This document shows, piece by piece, positions 2,992-23,249 of a DNA stretch of 32,916 bases. A program made the position numbers and the translations under genes. Source of the DNA: an uncultured archaeon. Its GTDB lineage: Archaea > Aenigmatarchaeota > Aenigmatarchaeia > CG10238-14. Positions within the stretch are counted from its first letter, which is position 1; each line of letters starts with the position of its first letter. The stretch lies in NCBI GenBank assembly GCA_964392445.1, contig CAYMPD010000014.1:1-32916 (forward strand), written 5' to 3'. The notes under the pieces were generated by a model, which saw only the letters and a list, made by a program, of their open reading frames with translations, ran no database searches and had not been told where the DNA came from.

Positions 2992-5900
2992 CTACACACA
3001 ATAACCCCATTGACTACCACTTGAAGTTGTCTGGCAGGGATCACATTCTAAACCTTCATTGCAACTATATGTGGAGGTCCCATCTGGTTCTAATTTACAG
3101 TAAGAACCTAATTCACCGTCCTGCTGAAGATTGGAAATACATTTCATTATATCAAGAATATCTATATCACAGTCACCGTCATAATCATATTGAAAACACT
3201 CGGTCCAATCTTCATCTGATCTTCTGCTGTTCCAACAACTAATCAGACCACAGAATTCAGAACCTGGACATGGATCCGGAGCTGGTTTAGGATTACATGG
3301 TATCGTAGTGGTTGTGGTGGTTGATTGGTATGGATTACACCATTCTTCAGGCGCTAGAAATTTAATCGTATATTTACCTTCTGGTAACTTATCCCAATAC
3401 CAATGAGCCATAGGAACTTGTGGGTTCCAGTAGGTTCCATAATTTATAGCCGGATGAGGAGGACTACCATACAAAGATAGAGCATCATCCTCAGATGGTT
3501 CTTCAGTAGGCTCGACTCCAAAGTAAACACCACTTACTTTACTCGATGACACTTCCTCAGTTATTGTTATTTCACGAGTTTGACCGGCATCACCTGGTGT
3601 TCCATGATTTACTACAAATGGTCTCCCTGGCCAAAAAATGTAAAGTGTTTCTGTCATGCCTATTGGCTCTATAGAAGGATCTTCACATACAGTTTCGTAT
3701 TCAATCACCCAGGTTTTTGGGCTAATTGTTGTAGTTGTTGTTGTGGTGGGTATTGTGGTTGTGGTGGGTATTGTAACTTCCAAATATCTACTCTTTATTG
3801 ATTCTGAATTCCCTTTTAGATCCTCTGAATAAAATCGAATGTAACCTGATGACCCTATCTCGATAGAAGAGGTATAGTCTTCTTCGGGCTCACATGTATT
3901 GGTTTGATCTAAACAGTAATAAGTACGACCGCAATCCAAATTATCACTACATTGCAAGGTTAATTCTAACTCCTCAAAAGAATGATCACATGAACCTCCA
4001 TTACATTTTATATTGGTACTAGGAGATGAAGCATCAACAATTGAATAATAATAATCCGCTCCCTCGCAAGTATCACTTGAAAAACCCATTGAATAATGTC
4101 CTATGTTAGATGCTCTACAATTTTTCCTACACCAACAATGGCCCCCACCTTGCCAAGAAGGACAACATTGGGATTTACTTACTATTAAACCTCCGCATCC
4201 TGTGATTCCTTGACCTGGATTAATATGAACATTGGTATGGCCGGCATCACTCTGGAAAACAATGTCAAAGGTCTCCCCAAGTCCTAATGGGTCCTCTAAT
4301 TGATTTTTTGAAGTCATAAAATTGTAAAGTTGTACTCCATCATCGCCACTATAACAATAGGGTAATCTATGTATATCAACCACTGTCTCATCCTCTTTTA
4401 TTTGATTCCATCCTTCTAAATATCCTTTGATTGTGTATTTACCTGCTTTTGGATAATTACATAGATCCTTAACAGTAAACTTTGTATTCTCAATTTTGGT
4501 CTGGTAAGAATTACCATAATCATCTGTTCTCCGAACCCAATCAGAATCTGGATTTGAAAAATCTGTATTGCTGTATTTGGCTTTAGTCCCCCCAGTTGAA
4601 TCACAATACAATCTGATTGCTAGTTCTTGTTCTGGTTGAAAACCTAGATTAGCTTCTAAGTCTACATCATAAAGTTCTATACCCCACCTTGAATCTGGAA
4701 CAGCCTCAAGTCTCAAAGGAGGTAATTCAATGTTAGCTGTTATATCGAAATAGGATTCACAGCTAGAAGCTGTGTGTCCTGTCTCCCTACAGGTGGCAAT
4801 AACTTTACATGCGTCTTCTCCGGGGGTTTTACATTCCTCTGGCACTTTTATGTTTAATGTATCAACACGTGCATCGCTACCACTTCCTAAATATTCATCC
4901 ACAGAAGTTGTCCACTGATTATCTTCCTTATATTTAACCATATACCAATATTTCGAACTCGAACCACATCTCCAATCAACATCAACATCGAAATCGGAAT
5001 CATGTGAATATGAAAGACTGGAAAGTTCGCAACCGGCAGATGGGGTTTGCACTGTAGTCGTGGTTGTTGTTTCAGATCCACCCTCAATGTAAATATAATA
5101 ATGACAACCTACTCCATCCACGTTGTATTCGTAACGAATCTTGCAGCCCTCAGGTGTATTACATTCAGCATTCTCAAATCTGATTCCATAAGCAGTATTT
5201 TCCTGTGAAATACCAAGACCGGATCCTGAATCCGTGAATGCGTCCCTGTCATCACTACCATCGAAAGCCCAATCACCACAACTCCCACCATCTCCACAAG
5301 ATGCCCAGTCATTAATAGCCCCTGTCCCTGTAGTTGTGGAACCATAATTTATAACCAAAGTTACATCTTCGCCCTGAGAGAGAGGATTATTTTGAGTTGG
5401 AGGTGACCTTGTAGATGATGGATGAGGTATTGCCCAATCTGAACCCAATGTATGGTCTTCAGTGTTTTCATACCAGTAGAGATCACCACATTCTATTATT
5501 GTGGTGGTTGTCGTGGGTATTGTAGTTGTGGTGGTTGAAGTTGTTACACTTGAGCCCTCTACGGTAAAAGTGAATTCTTGATCACTGTCTAATGAATTAC
5601 CATATAGATCTTTGACTTCCGAATCCACTACAACTCGATAAATTGATCCTCCATTAAGAGGATCTTGAGGTATAATCTTAACCATTTTAGCATCGTATGG
5701 CATGAAAATCTCAGGTGAACCATCTTTTTGGGGTATCTCCACTTCATTATCATCATAGATTTTAAAAGTATTCTGATTTATGGAATTAGTATTTAACCTT
5801 TCGTTAAAACTTACTGTGGGTTCTACATTCGTAGGTATATTTTGACCTTCTGGATAAAATCCTAAAACTTCTGGTGGTTCAGTTTCTTTTGGAATGTAAT

Positions 5901-8784
5901 AAACCCCGAATGACCAAGAATTGTCATTCTCATTGGTTTCCTGTATCTGATTATCACAATCCGCTATAAATTCTATTCTTAATGAACTATCTCTTCCAGA
6001 AGGTATATGAGGAAGTTCTAACCCATAGAAGTAAACATTACCATAAGAAACCTCTCCGGATAACATTGTCTCGTGGGATCCATATCCAATAACAAATCCA
6101 TTTTTCTTCCATTTCACATTAAATGTCCCCCCTGTATTCTCTGAACCCACATTTTCCAGTACAGCTTTCAAATCGACCTTCATTCCTTCTTTTAAGGAAC
6201 CACCAAACAATTCGTAAGAATCAGTATAAGGGCCTTGATGAGGATAAATCTTTATATCCGATACCTTGAGGTTAGATTGGGTGGTTGAACTTGAGCTCGA
6301 AGCTTGAAGCATTAATTGAGTTTGGACTGAAGAGCTGGATTTTTGGGAAAATGTTGTTCCTAAACATCTTGATATTTTTAATGTTGGATCACCGAAAAAT
6401 AAGACACCATAATCTCTCTTTCTATCAACTTCATGTTCACTCCACCAATTTTTATAAGCGCTCCCAAAGTTAATGCAAATATCTAGAGGAGTAAAGAATT
6501 TATCTAAATGGGGAGGGGGATACCAAATTTTACTTGAAGCAAAAGCCGTTAAACCATCATCTTGATTATTATTGGAAAAAATATAGGACTTTGCGATATT
6601 ATCTTCAACAAAAGGATTTGCAGGATTATCTGCAAGATAATAACGCCCATTATTACAAGAACTAAGTAGGAAGAATTCAGGTTCCATATTAATATCAACT
6701 ATGCTTTCTGCTAAAACATCCTCCCAAGTCATGCCTTGATCTGTTTCCACCATAAATGAATGACCCCATGGATGACCATGTACATCTAATCTAACAAATT
6801 CAATATCTTTCGAACTTGAACATAGGAGAGATAGATATTTCTCTGAAGTGGTCAATTCCGGTTCATTGATAGCTAAAATATTAGCATATGATTTTCCAAT
6901 ATGATTTTCATATATATTTTTATCACAGTAAAATTCATTGACATTAGCGTAACATAGGGCATTCTCTGAAACTTGCCTATTGGTACGATATTCATGATTT
7001 CTATCAAAATAGTTATTTATTACATCCTCCTCAGAGCCTAAAGAAGACATATGACTACCAGGCAATCTACCAACCCAAATCTCTGGTTTCATATCTCCAG
7101 TCACGATTGTATTACTTCTAATAAGCTCAACTAGAGGTCTATGAGTATCTAAATAACCATTACTGCCTCTCTGAGGATCGCAGTCTGGGGAATATGAAAC
7201 CGGTTTATTTTCAGTATCAAAACAGGTGGGCTCCAAATTATCTTCCCAATCATCATCCAAATCCATATAGTATAAATCAGAAATGAATAAATCATAATAA
7301 TTTGTGATCTTGACATTATTTCCATTTTGATTGATGACTGAATCTGTTATAAAATCCTCATAGCTCTCAAAAAAGGGTATAGGTAAATCACCAACTAAAA
7401 TAGCACCGTCCAAATTTTGATACATCCATTGATTTTTCAGTTCTTCCCTAAGATACATCGCCCCACCATCATTTTCAGTGGAATCATAATTTGCTAAATC
7501 CTCAGGGGGATCCCATGATAACTGTTCTACTTCATATCCCTCAGACTCCAAATCAGCCTGATATTGGTTTAGAGAAGATTGAATTTTAGGTCTTAGTTCT
7601 TCATTGATTATTATTAAAACCTTGACTCTTTCATGAGAATGAAATAAATCATAATCAAAAGAAATTCTAGCGTTCCCTCCATTTTCAAAATAATCTATTC
7701 TGAAATTATGGTAACCAGAGTTTAAATCAACCATAACTGACTCTTTTCCATAAGAAGATTCTTCCCACATATCTATTTCAAGTTCACCATCTATCCACAA
7801 TCTCGCTCCATCGTCAGAACCTAATGAGAATGTATATAACCCCCCTTCTTCAAAGTGAATTTTTGTCGAAGATTTGAAATTGATTTCATCCGACTTTTCA
7901 TATGCAATCAAATCTCCCCCCCACTTATTATCGAACTCTATATCATCCTCATTGGGTCCATTTCCCATACAATTACCGTCACTATCATACCAGACTCTCT
8001 GCCAAGTATCTTCCGGATAATTCAACTCGGAACAAGTACCAGGAGATGAAGGTTCCGAATCAGAGGGAGGACCCATAATTTCAAATGAGACTCTAGGATT
8101 TCCCATATCACCAGCATGAGGTATACCCCCATGACAATAAGCAATTGCAAAATCATGATAACCTGCTTTTAAGTACACTTCCTTGTCCCAATATTCGTAC
8201 GTCTCGTAACTATGGGCATTCAAAACTACTTCCCCATCAATCCACAACTTAACATCGTAATCTGTACCTATACGGAACTTATAGTTGCCACTAGTGGGGA
8301 TATTTATCTTTCTTGAGGATTGAAAACCTATATCATCCCATTTTTCATGGCTATAAGGTATTCGAGGGAGATTTCCTCCTGGTACTTGAAAGTCCTCCTC
8401 AAACCAAAGATTATCAAATTCTTCTCCCTCTTCATCTGGACCATCTCCTAAGCATTCACTATAACAGTCATTTGGATCTCCACAATTATCGGTCCATGGT
8501 TGGCAGTAATCAAACCAGACCCTCTGCCATACTGATGGAGAATATCTCAAATTAGAACATATTCCTTCTGTTGACTCTGACGCACTTGATTGACTTTTAA
8601 TACCCAAAATTGAAAATATTCTATTTAACATACTTCCTCCTGAAGGTTGAGTTTGACCTCCTGAACAAAAAGGGAAACCTTCAAAGGAAGGAATATCACA
8701 GATATCAATTGAGAAAACCAAAGCCGATCCTAAAAATAGAAAAGCCAAGAGAAAAGCCAAAATGGCTTTATTGAATCTTAACAT
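2992..8784 (-). CDS. 1930-aa secreted multidomain protease: signal peptide, 2x PA14, peptidase C25 (gingipain-like), CARDB, Ig-like (Big_5), Thr linkers, Cys-rich domains, C-terminal dockerin-like motif
   Basis: PA14-like motifs YKFRIGTDYDVKLWIDGE and YTFSLGSDDGARLWIDGE. C25-like motifs AILVGDLP, SDLYYMDLD, PEIWVGRLP, DVHG (His at 6778-6780), LSSCNNG (Cys at 6655-6657), FFGDPTL. CARDB-like ADCDNQIQETNENDN. Big_5-like VSFNERL...VKDLYGNSL. Dockerin-like DYDGDCDIDILD. Confidence 0.85.
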   Translation of the reverse strand: MLRFNKAILAFLLAFLFLGSALVFSIDICDIPSFEGFPFCSGGQTQPSGGSMLNRIFSILGIKSQSSASESTEGICSNLRYSPSVWQRVWFDYCQPWTDNCGDPNDCYSECLGDGPDEEGEEFDNLWFEEDFQVPGGNLPRIPYSHEKWDDIGFQSSRKINIPTSGNYKFRIGTDYDVKLWIDGEVVLNAHSYETYEYWDKEVYLKAGYHDFAIAYCHGGIPHAGDMGNPRVSFEIMGPPSDSEPSSPGTCSELNYPEDTWQRVWYDSDGNCMGNGPNEDDIEFDNKWGGDLIAYEKSDEINFKSSTKIHFEEGGLYTFSLGSDDGARLWIDGELEIDMWEESSYGKESVMVDLNSGYHNFRIDYFENGGNARISFDYDLFHSHERVKVLIIINEELRPKIQSSLNQYQADLESEGYEVEQLSWDPPEDLANYDSTENDGGAMYLREELKNQWMYQNLDGAILVGDLPIPFFESYEDFITDSVINQNGNNVKITNYYDLFISDLYYMDLDDDWEDNLEPTCFDTENKPVSYSPDCDPQRGSNGYLDTHRPLVELIRSNTIVTGDMKPEIWVGRLPGSHMSSLGSEEDVINNYFDRNHEYRTNRQVSENALCYANVNEFYCDKNIYENHIGKSYANILAINEPELTTSEKYLSLLCSSSKDIEFVRLDVHGHPWGHSFMVETDQGMTWEDVLAESIVDINMEPEFFLLSSCNNGRYYLADNPANPFVEDNIAKSYIFSNNNQDDGLTAFASSKIWYPPPHLDKFFTPLDICINFGSAYKNWWSEHEVDRKRDYGVLFFGDPTLKISRCLGTTFSQKSSSSVQTQLMLQASSSSSTTQSNLKVSDIKIYPHQGPYTDSYELFGGSLKEGMKVDLKAVLENVGSENTGGTFNVKWKKNGFVIGYGSHETMLSGEVSYGNVYFYGLELPHIPSGRDSSLRIEFIADCDNQIQETNENDNSWSFGVYYIPKETEPPEVLGFYPEGQNIPTNVEPTVSFNERLNTNSINQNTFKIYDDNEVEIPQKDGSPEIFMPYDAKMVKIIPQDPLNGGSIYRVVVDSEVKDLYGNSLDSDQEFTFTVEGSSVTTSTTTTTIPTTTTTIIECGDLYWYENTEDHTLGSDWAIPHPSSTRSPPTQNNPLSQGEDVTLVINYGSTTTGTGAINDWASCGDGGSCGDWAFDGSDDRDAFTDSGSGLGISQENTAYGIRFENAECNTPEGCKIRYEYNVDGVGCHYYIYIEGGSETTTTTTVQTPSAGCELSSLSYSHDSDFDVDVDWRCGSSSKYWYMVKYKEDNQWTTSVDEYLGSGSDARVDTLNIKVPEECKTPGEDACKVIATCRETGHTASSCESYFDITANIELPPLRLEAVPDSRWGIELYDVDLEANLGFQPEQELAIRLYCDSTGGTKAKYSNTDFSNPDSDWVRRTDDYGNSYQTKIENTKFTVKDLCNYPKAGKYTIKGYLEGWNQIKEDETVVDIHRLPYCYSGDDGVQLYNFMTSKNQLEDPLGLGETFDIVFQSDAGHTNVHINPGQGITGCGGLIVSKSQCCPSWQGGGHCWCRKNCRASNIGHYSMGFSSDTCEGADYYYSIVDASSPSTNIKCNGGSCDHSFEELELTLQCSDNLDCGRTYYCLDQTNTCEPEEDYTSSIEIGSSGYIRFYSEDLKGNSESIKSRYLEVTIPTTTTIPTTTTTTTISPKTWVIEYETVCEDPSIEPIGMTETLYIFWPGRPFVVNHGTPGDAGQTREITITEEVSSSKVSGVYFGVEPTEEPSEDDALSLYGSPPHPAINYGTYWNPQVPMAHWYWDKLPEGKYTIKFLAPEEWCNPYQSTTTTTTIPCNPKPAPDPCPGSEFCGLISCWNSRRSDEDWTECFQYDYDGDCDIDILDIMKCISNLQQDGELGSYCKLEPDGTSTYSCNEGLECDPCQTTSSGSQWGYCV

Positions 8785-20176: not shown

Positions 20177-21001
20177 TTATATTATTATTCTTGCTCTTTT
20201 AAGATCCTCTGGTGTATTGATGTTTATCCACATGCCTTGGAAAGGATAAGCAGATAGGACTTCTTTTTTTACTAGCCTTGGGAACAGATCTTTTTCTATA
20301 CTCTTCATATTTTTAGAAATATAGTTGAATATTCTTGGCTCAAAGATAAACATTCCTCCAGAGACCAGGTAACTATCCGTTGAATTGGTGGGTTTTTCCT
20401 TGAACATTGTTATTTTATTTCCCTTGATGTTAATCACCCCATAATCTTTTGGATTAGATACTGATGTTAGGGAGACGGTTACCAAGTTCTGGTTTTTTCT
20501 GTGAAAATTTAGGAAGTCGTTGATATCAATTGAAGATATAGTGTCGCCATAGACTACTAGAAATGTGTCTTTGATTTTTCTTCTCGCCTGGATCAATGGT
20601 TGTATTGTTCCTTTGGGCTTTTCACCCGTTAAATAGTCTATTTTTATTCTTAACTTAGATCCATCGCCAAAGTAATCTTCGATTTTCTCACCGAGGTAGT
20701 CTGTATATATTATATAATTAGTAATGTTGAAACTTTGGAGTCGTTCGATGATATGTTCGAGGATTGGTTTTCCTTTGATTAGTAACATGGGTCTTGGCGT
20801 ATTTTTTGTTAGTTTCCCCATTTCTTTTCTTTTTCCTCCAGCCAAGATTAGGACGTTGGTTATGTTGAAATCGGATAGTGTTTTTGAAAGTAGATATTCT
20901 ATTGCTTGAGATCTACTCCGTATTTTCAGGTCGTCTATAAGTCTGTCTACCTGCTGAACTATGTCTTTTCTTAAGGTGACGGTGACTCTTTGTCTTTTCA
21001 T
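20177..21001 (-). CDS. Ribbon-helix-helix domain fused to a sugar-phosphate nucleotidyltransferase (NTP_transferase) domain
   Basis: N-terminal RVTVTL..IV..VD.L....RSRSQAIEYLL (RHH); then LILAGG...TPRPMLLIKGKPILEHII, FLVVYGD, VSGGMFIF. ATG with GAGG RBS. Confidence 0.85.
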   Translation of the reverse strand: MKRQRVTVTLRKDIVQQVDRLIDDLKIRSRSQAIEYLLSKTLSDFNITNVLILAGGKRKEMGKLTKNTPRPMLLIKGKPILEHIIERLQSFNITNYIIYTDYLGEKIEDYFGDGSKLRIKIDYLTGEKPKGTIQPLIQARRKIKDTFLVVYGDTISSIDINDFLNFHRKNQNLVTVSLTSVSNPKDYGVINIKGNKITMFKEKPTNSTDSYLVSGGMFIFEPRIFNYISKNMKSIEKDLFPRLVKKEVLSAYPFQGMWININTPEDLKRARIII

Positions 21002-21018
21002 ATTTCCTCATACTCCTG

Positions 21019-21031
21019 CATATACTATATG
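21019..21031. promoter_or_regulatory. Palindromic operator candidate CATATA-C-TATATG between TATA and RBS of the RHH-nucleotidyltransferase gene
   Basis: Perfect 13-bp odd palindrome; TATA-like TTTATAT on the minus strand at ~21047-21053. Confidence 0.45.
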
Positions 21032-21069
21032 ATTTTTGTTAAAGTAAATATAAAATTGTTTTTGATTTT

Positions 21070-21339
21070 ATGAGAGTTATATATCAAGTTAGGAGAAGAA
21101 GCCCGATATTGAGATTCTTCAAAGGTGAATATAGAAAAGTTGTTTGTGAAGATTCTGCTTTAGGGGCTACTTCTGTAAGAGTTTGTGGTAGCGGTAATCC
21201 TCATGCTGTTATATGCCCAAATTCTGTTAGGGGCTTAGGTCCAAGTTTTATAGAAGAAAATAAACCCGATAATGTTGTTTATGATCCAGAATTCGACTGC
21301 GGAGTAACAGATTGTGAATATTATAGAAGGTCCAGTTAA
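21070..21339 (+). CDS. Small hypothetical protein (89 aa, five Cys)
   Basis: Fills an otherwise empty gap; stop abuts the convergent stop at 21341; no family recognised. Confidence 0.5.
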   Translation: MRVIYQVRRRSPILRFFKGEYRKVVCEDSALGATSVRVCGSGNPHAVICPNSVRGLGPSFIEENKPDNVVYDPEFDCGVTDCEYYRRSS

Positions 21340-21340
21340 T

Positions 21341-22153
21341 TCACATATAACCCAAATCCCTTAGCCTCTTCATAATTCCTTCCTTATCTTGTCTTCTGCC
21401 TTCTCTTTCTGTTGTATTTTCTAAATCCTGTTCCCATGCTGGTTTTTCACTAACTTTGTGTGTTGTTCCTTTAGCACCAAGTGATCTGTAGCCTTTTTCG
21501 TATAATTTGTTGTAAGGTATTTTGAACTTGAAGGTAGTATCCCATACTTCTCGTTCGGTAAAATGAAGGATTGGGTGTACTCTGGTGTGATCAGGTTCTT
21601 GTCTTGGGCTGAAAAATTTTTCGTTTGCTCTAGCAGGTTGTTCGTCCCATCTTATCCCAGTTATCACTGCTTTGAAACCCATCTTCTCGAGGTAAACATT
21701 CATGGCCACAGTCTTCATAAGATGATTTCCCACATAAGATTCTGGTTCAAATGGGAATTGATCTTTATCAAATCCTAACTTCTTGATCTCTTGTTTGTTT
21801 CTCTTGTTTAATTTGGATATTTTTACTAGGTCACCAACCTTTTCAACTTGTTTTAGAATGTCTTTGTTTTTAACCTCATCCACATCCAATCCCCATTCAT
21901 CACCGTATTTCTCAACAAAACTTCTCACTTCTTCGAAGATATGACCTTCGTTGATGAACATGCATTTAGGTAAGTCGTAATTGTCCTCATCACAAACTTC
22001 CTTGACTAACCATAATAACACCGTACTGTCTTTTCCACCAGTCCAAGCAACAGCTATATTCTCGCTTCCGTATTTTTCAAAAGCCTGTTGGATTACTTCT
22101 TTTGATTTGCTTACCTTTTGTTCTAATCCTAATTCCATTAATTCTTCGTCCAC
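21341..22153 (-). CDS. PAPS-reductase-family (PP-loop) protein lacking the catalytic Cys motif; possible CysD-like sulfate adenylyltransferase
   Basis: AWTGGKDSTVLL, ITGIRWDE..AR, RVHPILHFTEREVW, YNKLYEKGYRSLG; no ECG motif. GTG start with GAGGTGA RBS, directly after the upstream stop. Confidence 0.8.
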   Translation of the reverse strand: MDEELMELGLEQKVSKSKEVIQQAFEKYGSENIAVAWTGGKDSTVLLWLVKEVCDEDNYDLPKCMFINEGHIFEEVRSFVEKYGDEWGLDVDEVKNKDILKQVEKVGDLVKISKLNKRNKQEIKKLGFDKDQFPFEPESYVGNHLMKTVAMNVYLEKMGFKAVITGIRWDEQPARANEKFFSPRQEPDHTRVHPILHFTEREVWDTTFKFKIPYNKLYEKGYRSLGAKGTTHKVSEKPAWEQDLENTTEREGRRQDKEGIMKRLRDLGYM

Positions 22154-22927
22154 TTAATTCACCTCATATTTTTTAGCTAAAAATTTTGCAACATCTTCTG
22201 GTTGATTTATCTTGAAATCTATGTTTTTCGTTATCAGTATTGCGTCAGGATGATGATCGCCCTTTAGTATTTTTCCTGTCTTTGTTTTTTTAGGAAGTGT
22301 TTGTATCGGTGCTTTATCATAGTCACAGAAACCATGATCAGAAATTATTATTAACTCGTCATCTAATTCCACTAGTTTTGACAAGGATTTATCTATTTTT
22401 TTGTAGTAGTCCAGCATTATCGGTTCTCCCCAATGATGATGTGATAATTTATCTAAGGCCGTGTAACAGATAATCGAAACTTCTGGTTTGTTTTTGGTTA
22501 GAATTTCCAATGCCTTTTCTGTGACTGAATTAATTTCCTGTTTCAGTTCTTCTTCAGATATTGGAACTCCTTTACCGGGTGGGATAAAATTAACATTAAA
22601 ATTGTAGGGCGGGACTAGGAAAGGGACGTTTAAAGCCTTCACTGAAATTTCTTTTTTTTGTAATTTATCCCAGATGAATTCAGTTTCAATATCTTCTCTC
22701 GCAACTAACTTTCCATCTTCCACAAAATTATGATGTCCATGTTTTTCAGGTTTTAATCCCGAGAACATAGAACACCAGACAGATGCTGACCAAGGTTTTT
22801 GATCCAAGTGGAGAGTTTTATGATTATAATTTTCCAGTAATTTTTTGAATGTTGGTAATTCATCCAAATTCGGTTTAATAATATCCCAAGTAGCTCCGTC
22901 TATTCCTATGATTAGCATTGCTATCAC
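22154..22927 (-). CDS. Alkaline phosphatase superfamily (type I phosphodiesterase/nucleotide pyrophosphatase-like) protein, short form
   Basis: IIGIDGATW, PWSASVWCSMFSGLKPEKHG (Ser nucleophile position), ALDKLSHHHW, IISDHGF, GDHHPD. Confidence 0.82.
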   Translation of the reverse strand: MIAMLIIGIDGATWDIIKPNLDELPTFKKLLENYNHKTLHLDQKPWSASVWCSMFSGLKPEKHGHHNFVEDGKLVAREDIETEFIWDKLQKKEISVKALNVPFLVPPYNFNVNFIPPGKGVPISEEELKQEINSVTEKALEILTKNKPEVSIICYTALDKLSHHHWGEPIMLDYYKKIDKSLSKLVELDDELIIISDHGFCDYDKAPIQTLPKKTKTGKILKGDHHPDAILITKNIDFKINQPEDVAKFLAKKYEVN

Positions 22928-22928
22928 T

Positions 22929-23153
22929 TCAGTCCAAGTATCCTAAAGCTCTTAGTCTTCTTTTAACTTTTTCCTCTTCTTCTTTTGTGTATGCTTCATC
23001 TTTTTTTTCTTCAGCCAAGCTCGATAGCACCTCCCTCATTACAAAAGTTACATAATGTGATGCCGATGAAAACCCTGTACCTTCGATTCTTTTGTTGATT
23101 TTTTCATGAAGTGTTTTGGGTATACTCACCGTGGTATGTTTTCTTTCTGACAT
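22929..23153 (-). CDS. CopG/Arc ribbon-helix-helix regulator with C-terminal RLRALGYLD tail
   Basis: TTVSIPKTLHEKINKRIEGTGFSSASHYVTFVMREVL. ATG at 23153 (track uses TTG 23156); TTTAAATA box ~23-24 nt upstream, leaderless. Confidence 0.85.
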   Translation of the reverse strand: MSERKHTTVSIPKTLHEKINKRIEGTGFSSASHYVTFVMREVLSSLAEEKKDEAYTKEEEEKVKRRLRALGYLD

Positions 23154-23173
23154 CAAAGTATATAGGAACTTTG
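23154..23173. promoter_or_regulatory. Inverted repeat CAAAGT-N8-ACTTTG between TATA and start codon of the RHH gene (autoregulatory operator candidate)
   Basis: Perfect 6-bp arms at 23154-23159 and 23168-23173. Confidence 0.5.
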
Positions 23174-23249
23174 TCGTATTTAAATTTTAATGTCACTGCA
23201 TTAAAGAAAGTTAAAATCATGGCTAGTAATATATAAATGTTCACAGGGA

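Follow-up and report, generated by a model that had tools for sequence, protein, structure and literature searches.

A small ribbon-helix-helix (RHH) regulator of an uncultured archaeon ends in a 21-residue peptide that recurs at the C-terminus of unrelated proteins in other genomes. The window, meaning the whole stretch of 32,916 nucleotides that was analysed, is contig CAYMPD010000014.1 of a member of the Aenigmatarchaeota, and the regulator is encoded there together with an alkaline phosphatase (AP)-family protein and a CysD-like enzyme. The results reveal that the peptide exists as a module, that it is portable and confined to the C-terminus, and that it is linked to the sulfate-activation pathway. 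The CysD-like enzyme has a similar ending, and the relationship between the two tails, as well as the role that the module may serve, are considered below.

The three genes lie on the minus strand and are tightly packed in the open reading frame (ORF) listing, in the order RHH regulator, short AP-family enzyme and CysD-like adenylyltransferase. Their stop and start codons abut, indicating that they form one operon. The features are as follows.

23157 to 23249, minus strand: promoter region of the operon, 93 nucleotides, with a TATA-like box and an inverted repeat
22929 to 23156, minus strand: ORF of the small RHH (CopG/Arc-type) regulator, 74-75 amino acids, ATG at 23153, with an RHH core, an acidic linker and a C-terminal tail
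22932 to 22994, minus strand: canonical 21-residue C-terminal tail module of the RHH protein, 46.7 bits with the tail hidden Markov model (HMM) in its own genome
22154 to 22927, minus strand: short AP-superfamily protein, 257 amino acids, tail-less; PF01663, 79.6 bits, E 4e-22
21341 to 22153, minus strand: CysD-like adenine-nucleotide alpha-hydrolase of the PAPS_reduct family, 270 amino acids; PF01507, 112 bits, E 4e-32
21344 to 21409, minus strand: tail of the CysD-like enzyme, the ERxGR motif and then a short helix that ends in LGYM; kept in 119 of 120 homologues among the matches listed

The RHH protein terminates in ...RLRALGYLD and the CysD-like protein in ...RLRDLGYM. A preliminary description of this DNA had pointed out the common RLRxLGY ending, the unrelated folds of the two proteins and the lack of a tail on the AP-family protein between them, and all three observations stand. 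The host genome comprises 1.2 Mb and is 94.9% complete. Among its 6202 stop-to-stop frames of at least 50 amino acids, RLRxLGY endings are found in these two frames only, both in one operon. A tail HMM of 21 positions (A2), trained on RHH tails from other loci, was also run against 9903 frames of the genome with all filters off. The window RHH protein ranked first (46.7 bits, E 9e-13), the neighbouring CysD-like enzyme second (17.6 bits, E 1.1e-3), and the third match had an E-value of 0.28. The likeness of the two tails is real and not due to chance, and the tails are unequal in strength.

A portable tail module in sulfate-activation loci

The module consists of an [FY][ST] N-cap, an acidic run, the stretch K-[VI]-K-x-R-L-[RK]-x-L, a glycine C-cap, a tyrosine and a hydrophobic residue, in many cases with an acidic residue behind it. 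Such a pattern suggests a self-contained, self-capped amphipathic helix with acidic and basic residues. A profile search of 1.84 billion representatives returned 426 representative clusters at E <= 1e-3. Database members of the module score 42-56 bits, a range into which the window RHH tail falls. In 141 of 143 new database matches the chain ends one or two residues after LGY; it ends after two in the window RHH protein and after one in the CysD-like enzyme. The consensus is identical on carriers of <100, 101-260 and >260 amino acids, and the positions not used in selection are 87-100% invariant in these three size classes (362 carriers). No Pfam or NCBIfam model covers the module, and no description of the tail motif was found in the literature searched.

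At least five unrelated protein families have members that terminate in these 21 residues, in agreement with the earlier proposal that the tail is a portable unit. Carriers other than the small RHH proteins were found by searching longer proteins with the RHH family profile. They include APS (adenosine 5'-phosphosulfate) kinases of ~204 amino acids, AP/sulfatase-family proteins of 450-570 amino acids, one Lrp/AsnC regulator, double-RHH proteins of ~213 amino acids and natural fusions of APS kinase, RHH and tail. The sulfatase-type carriers confirm a statement of the preliminary description, namely that such a tail occurs on sulfatase/phosphodiesterase-family proteins. In tagged APS kinases, solved kinases align to residues 1 to ~176 and the tail helix occupies residues 187-199. 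The tail thus lies outside the aligned region, as an addition to a complete kinase fold. It comes after a similar native last helix, from which it is separated by a linker of 8 to ~14 residues. In the predicted structure of a tagged APS kinase, the predicted local distance difference test score (pLDDT) of the tail helix is ~92, suggesting that the helix can pack on the kinase or on its similar native last helix. Tandem modules are found in single chains (P0377, P0382, P0231 and ~10 further small RHH proteins), with a short acidic linker between the copies. The module appears to have been attached independently to regulators (RHH and Lrp/AsnC), to APS kinases and to AP/sulfatase-family enzymes. 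Weak look-alikes among 844 locus genes comprise only CysD-like tails and native APS-kinase ends.

Several identities were considered for the module and rejected. Weak matches to PF08823 recur (12-20 bits), aligning the module with the first helix of a peptidoglycan-binding domain. These matches are below the cut-off and cover a third of the domain, and they are read as a shared helix-LGY turn rather than homology. MIM1, a MIT-interacting motif with a similar spacing of glutamate, hydrophobic residue, RL and L, was set aside on two grounds: no MIT-domain gene is present among the annotated locus genes, and bacteria carry the tail too. The HbYX motif does not fit, the antepenultimate residue of the module being wrong. 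A membrane-targeting helix was dismissed since the module is too charged and too invariant, and a degron since a pathway-specific adaptor would be required. The middle part of the ~213-amino-acid carriers contains a second RHH and a domain of ~95 amino acids, PD-(D/E)xK-like by eye, with no significant Pfam match. A fused receptor for the tail was considered here and rejected; none of the locus genes is related to this domain. Separately, an internal APS-kinase motif, LGFSKEDR (L007, L012, L024 and other loci), has five residues in common with the start of the module (FSKED), which may be a coincidence.

The RHH protein itself belongs to a widespread family. Its homologues form 110 clusters with 44-78% identity, from Thermoplasmatota, Asgard, Altiarchaeales, Korarchaeota, Micrarchaeota, DPANN and others, and are labelled CopG or Arc/MetJ in the source annotations. 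The preliminary description had made conservation in orthologues a test of the tail. All 110 clusters have the tail nearly unchanged, with one gene call continuing beyond it, and the ending of the CysD-like enzyme is likewise retained by its homologues. The Pfam scan gave no RHH_1 match for the window protein. Matches to RHH_1 in the family are weak but consistent (11 of 26 members, best E 6e-4, at least one member below the cut-off), the family profile matches the RHH of NikR weakly in the PDB (E 0.065), and a RelB-like match is weak and limited to one of 26 members. The protein is probably an autoregulatory repressor, or a regulator, of the sulfate-activation module.

Gene context was counted in 69 RHH genome loci with sufficient flanking sequence. 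The RHH gene is first in nearly all layouts, and its family leads operons for sulfate activation and PAPS in archaea at large. It is followed by Sat, DHH, APS kinase and sulfotransferase; by Sat, AP and APS kinase; by CysD, CysN, DHH and APS kinase; or by AP and a CysD-like gene, as in the window. Sat is present in 57/69 loci, APS kinase in 58/69, DHH in 38/69, AP in 27/69, and CysD or a CysD-like gene in 10/69. A Sat or CysD-type gene is found in 67/69. The slot after Sat in the common RHH-led layouts is occupied by a DHH-family or an AP-family gene, and the AP-family protein may stand in functionally for the DHH pAp phosphatase. Within the phylum of the window, the RHH gene occurs in 39/301 sampled genomes, a CysD-family gene lies beside it in 24/30 loci, and RHH, short AP and CysD-like genes form a conserved triad. 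Neither Sat, nor APS kinase above the cut-off, nor Sulfotransfer_3 was found in the 94.9%-complete window genome. The window operon is a reduced module with a CysD-like enzyme in place of Sat.

A comparable arrangement is known from Pyrococcus yayanosii. There the CopG gene PYCH_17520 precedes genes for ATP sulfurylase, DHH pApase, type I phosphodiesterase and APS kinase, and is called a putative regulator (PMC8268124). The clusters are alike in that a small RHH gene leads sulfate activation and an AP-superfamily (NPP-type) gene is included, and the same layouts occur among the 69 loci. The window differs in being a reduced triad, with a CysD-like enzyme for Sat and no APS kinase found in the genome. 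A tail is not mentioned in the passages of PMC8268124 on the CopG gene.

The CysD-like enzyme and its ending

The enzyme has more than 4000 homologues, and its PP-loop (GGKDS) and ERxGR motif are both present and invariant. Its best NCBIfam match is to the CysD subfamily, with a score of 92 bits that lies below the cut-off of 195. The AlphaFold2 (AF2) model has a mean pLDDT of 91 and a fold like those of FAD synthase, APS reductase and CysD. No cysteine is present in the last 50 residues, where an ECGLH-type motif of PAPS (3'-phosphoadenosine 5'-phosphosulfate)/APS reductases was sought, and identity as a PAPS/APS reductase (CysH) was rejected since the C-terminal catalytic cysteine is lacking. 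The enzyme appears to be a CysD-clade adenylyltransferase. The window operon contains no cysN, and the only genome matches are EF-Tu-family genes on contig 1 with 32-37% identity, likely aEF1-alpha. CysN genes adjoin clade members in L180, L191, L196 and L200, all from the phylum of the window; other members lack them, as in the window.

The last 22 residues are invariant in 119/120 homologues among the matches listed, the exception being a truncated sequence. The ERxGR part of the tail aligns to residues 295-313 of Pseudomonas syringae CysD (1zun, of which chain A has 204/325 residues modelled). Like that protein and the CysDs of L007, L009 and other loci, the enzyme has ERxGR, the same spacing, a methionine at -8 and a Gly-Tyr-aromatic type of end one residue before the C-terminus. 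Unlike the window enzyme clade and the module, which have leucine at the corresponding positions, true CysD tails are charged there and give no match to the tail HMM; those in related loci have a charged stretch and an ...EGYF ending. The clade of the window enzyme keeps the CysD frame, with methionine at -8 and Gly-Tyr one residue before the end, and has leucine, leucine and isoleucine at -2, -5 and -9, as does the module. The alignments indicate that the enzyme tail is derived from the C-terminus of CysD. With the CysD frame and module-like residues combined, the most fitting reading is convergence of a CysD ending on the hydrophobic stripe and LGY of the module, that is, on its binding face.

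The preliminary description had treated the two tails as one shared element. This was not borne out: the RHH protein has the canonical module, and the ending of the enzyme aligns to the true CysD C-terminus. The CysD-like family scores a median of 11.2 bits with the tail HMM (78 members), compared to 17.6 bits for the window enzyme, and the resemblance to the module extends over the last ~ten residues only. As judged from sequence, the enzyme tail is a look-alike and not a member of the module. If mimicry is involved, it is less likely that the RHH protein imitates the enzyme than the reverse. Across the phylum, RHH tails are found repeatedly together with CysD-clade tails that end in LRxLGYM. 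In the AF2 model of the enzyme, the tail helix (residues 257-266) has a pLDDT of 63-65 and is helical, and it is not placed on its own domain, as would be expected for an element that binds in trans.

As a side observation, ASST-like beta-propeller genes, instead of AP-family genes, adjoin some CysD-like genes (L151, L160, L164, L167 and L173). The one in L167 (440-1885) ends in a weak look-alike of the tail.

Possible roles of the tail

The 21-residue peptide is near-unchanged across bacterial and archaeal phyla, sits on unrelated folds and is found only in sulfate-activation loci. A near-unchanged peptide on unrelated folds implies a conserved, so far undescribed molecular contact. Near-invariance around most of the helix, together with the need for a free C-terminus, also favours such a contact and a docking role. 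By analogy with known docking tails, a docking role for the module on the RHH regulator of sulfate activation is a moderately probable reading. The regulator would consist of an RHH core, a disordered acidic linker and a self-capped amphipathic helix of 21 residues that must sit at a free C-terminus. As a portable module for protein interaction, the helix would be specific to loci of sulfate activation and sulfation. The RHH tail would bind a protein of the pathway or a second copy of the helix, most likely in the manner of the tail of RHH antitoxins or Mnt, and operator binding would thereby respond to how much of the pathway machinery is present or to its state. The CysD-derived tail of the enzyme, which directly follows the phosphate-binding ERxGR motif, probably uses the same binding mode as the module, because it converged on the same hydrophobic stripe and LGY. 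Docking of the module onto a protein, and any regulatory effect of such docking, are inferences.

There are precedents for such an arrangement. In the RHH antitoxins RelB, ParD and CcdA, and in Mnt, a short C-terminal helix binds the toxin or the other dimer and tunes operator binding. Like these proteins, the window RHH protein has an N-terminal RHH core, a flexible linker and a short C-terminal helix. Unlike in these proteins, the tail is found as well at the ends of metabolic enzymes that belong to the regulated pathway, and there is no toxin gene. The C-terminal tip of SSB, the HbYX motif of proteasome activators and the cargo-loading peptides of encapsulins are short docking peptides at the C-termini of unrelated proteins. 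The tail resembles them as a short conserved C-terminal peptide that follows a poorly conserved linker on unrelated folds working together. It differs in that its sequence is unrelated, its last three residues are not HbYX, there is no evident gene for a receptor or a compartment, and only one tail carrier is present in most of the genomes checked.

Several findings weigh against a docking role. In four of the five genomes checked the module is on the RHH protein alone, so that any model must do without tagged enzymes, and scaffolding of several tagged enzymes is ruled out as a general role. None of the candidate partner families occurs in every locus, and Sat and CysD are unrelated enzymes. 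Of the potential partners, the window genome, at 94.9% completeness, yielded no APS kinase, Sat or Sulfotransfer_3, and there is no AP gene near 42/69 RHH loci. The pLDDT values express local confidence only. Finally, the enzyme tail reaches only 17.6 bits, and its likeness to the module could be a shared solution to helix capping and not a shared function.

One alternative is that the tails bind each other by helix-helix pairing. As with the C-terminal helix of Mnt, RHH dimers would be joined into tetramers or longer arrays on tandem operator repeats, and tail-like enzyme ends (in the window that of the CysD-like enzyme, in other genomes the native last helix of APS kinases) would cap the contacts and titrate the repressor. 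Such pairing would explain genomes with the module on RHH only, and it fits both the tandem tails within one chain and operator arrays of 3-5 repeats spaced ~10 base pairs apart by eye. It is also consistent with the tagged APS kinases, where the module follows a similar native last helix and then has a pLDDT of ~92, and with CysD-like tails and native APS-kinase ends being the sole weak look-alikes in the 844 locus genes. However, at ~15 residues the helix is on the short side for stable coiled-coil formation, and invariance around nearly the whole circumference and a strictly free C-terminus better match a pocket on a conserved receptor. Pairing of this kind is considered unlikely. The model of the preliminary description, in which the RHH and enzyme tails compete for one site on the tail-less AP protein and so couple complex assembly to transcription, is quite doubtful. 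The AP protein is the sole tail-less member of the operon, the triad of RHH, short AP and CysD-like genes is conserved, and an AP-family gene adjoins the CysD-like gene in 36/62 loci. However, many AP-family proteins carry the module themselves, RHH-CysD-CysN loci and most RHH-Sat-DHH loci of Thermoplasmatota lack a nearby AP gene, and other CysD-like genes adjoin ASST-like beta-propellers instead. A PF01663 protein elsewhere in the genome is uninformative in this respect, being present in 11/14 control genomes.

It is also conceivable that the two tails share no function. The ending of the enzyme would then be a plain CysD-family C-terminus, and the likeness a common way to end an amphipathic helix with a Leu-Gly-aromatic cap. 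The alignment to true CysD (ERxGR, methionine at -8 and the Gly-Tyr-aromatic end) and the score of only 17.6 bits point in this direction, as does the weak match of an L-x-x-L-G-Y helix end to the first helix of PF08823. Yet the enzyme tail is the best non-self match in the genome and lies in the same operon, its pairing with the RHH tail recurs across the phylum, and true CysD tails, which are not amphipathic, score nothing with the tail HMM. There is only a slim chance that this explanation is correct. A further idea is that the invariant tyrosine of the flexible tail is a sulfuryl acceptor, sulfated from APS or PAPS. The analogy is to APS/PAPS reductases, which share the fold of the CysD-like enzyme and have a nucleophilic cysteine on a mobile C-terminal tail. 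This idea is barely plausible. If true, the sulfotyrosine would be a protein-borne aryl-sulfate that neighbouring arylsulfatase-like AP enzymes or ASST-like propellers could use or remove, and on the RHH protein it would serve as a covalent read-out of donor supply.

The partner of the peptide, once known, would show how such operons are regulated, which in uncultured archaea frequently pass for "partial sulfate assimilation", and whether their enzymes form a complex. It may also reveal how reduced modules, such as that of the window, use activated sulfate when neither APS kinase nor a known sulfotransferase is there. As a practical marker, the peptide can point to these loci in metagenomes.

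The upstream region and neighbouring genes

A TATA-like sequence, TTTAAATA, lies ~25 nucleotides before the RHH start codon, and the operon transcript is possibly leaderless. A candidate operator in the promoter region is a 7-nucleotide inverted repeat (23186-23192 / 23199-23205). Upstream of RHH genes in several archaeal phyla there are arrays of 3-5 repeats of the ATAATTA/TAAATAT type, with a spacing of ~10 base pairs by eye. In a survey of the 130 nucleotides 5' of RHH genes in loci L001-L080, ATAATTA was present in 53/65 RHH upstream regions vs 43/201 other intergenic regions of the same loci, and ATAAT[TG]A sites numbered 2.3 vs 0.45 per region; the loci are partly related, and this kinship inflates the significance of the enrichment. 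The promoter region of the window fits the repeat pattern only partly. It is likely that the repeat arrays upstream of RHH genes serve as the operator.

The AP protein passes the PF01663 gathering cut-off (79.6 bits vs 23) and spans positions 2-229 of the 342-position Phosphodiest profile. Orthologues of 251-260 amino acids occupy the same slot in L061, L073, L082-L084, L095-L097, L175, L178, L181 and L188, and all are tail-less, as is the window protein. The 62 loci in which an AP-family gene was scored directly beside the CysD-like gene are metagenome loci. A second, full-length AP-family gene (~518 amino acids), also tail-less, was noted on contig C8 (~4345-5901, minus strand); it is 28-30% identical to AP proteins of Asgard operons with the layout RHH, Sat, AP and APS kinase.

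Downstream of the operon, a plus-strand ORF of 89 amino acids that contains cysteine (21070-21339) lies between the CysD-like gene and a gene for an RHH-nucleotidyltransferase. It has no Pfam or Rfam match, and Rfam gave none in the 339-nucleotide gap at 21002-21340. The end of an ORF in a genome of the same genus (L082, 164-427) is similar to it. The nucleotidyltransferase (20177-21001, minus strand) is of the sugar-phosphate type, lacks the tail module and has its own N-terminal RHH domain (RHH_1, 21 bits). It is a second, different RHH protein of the locus.

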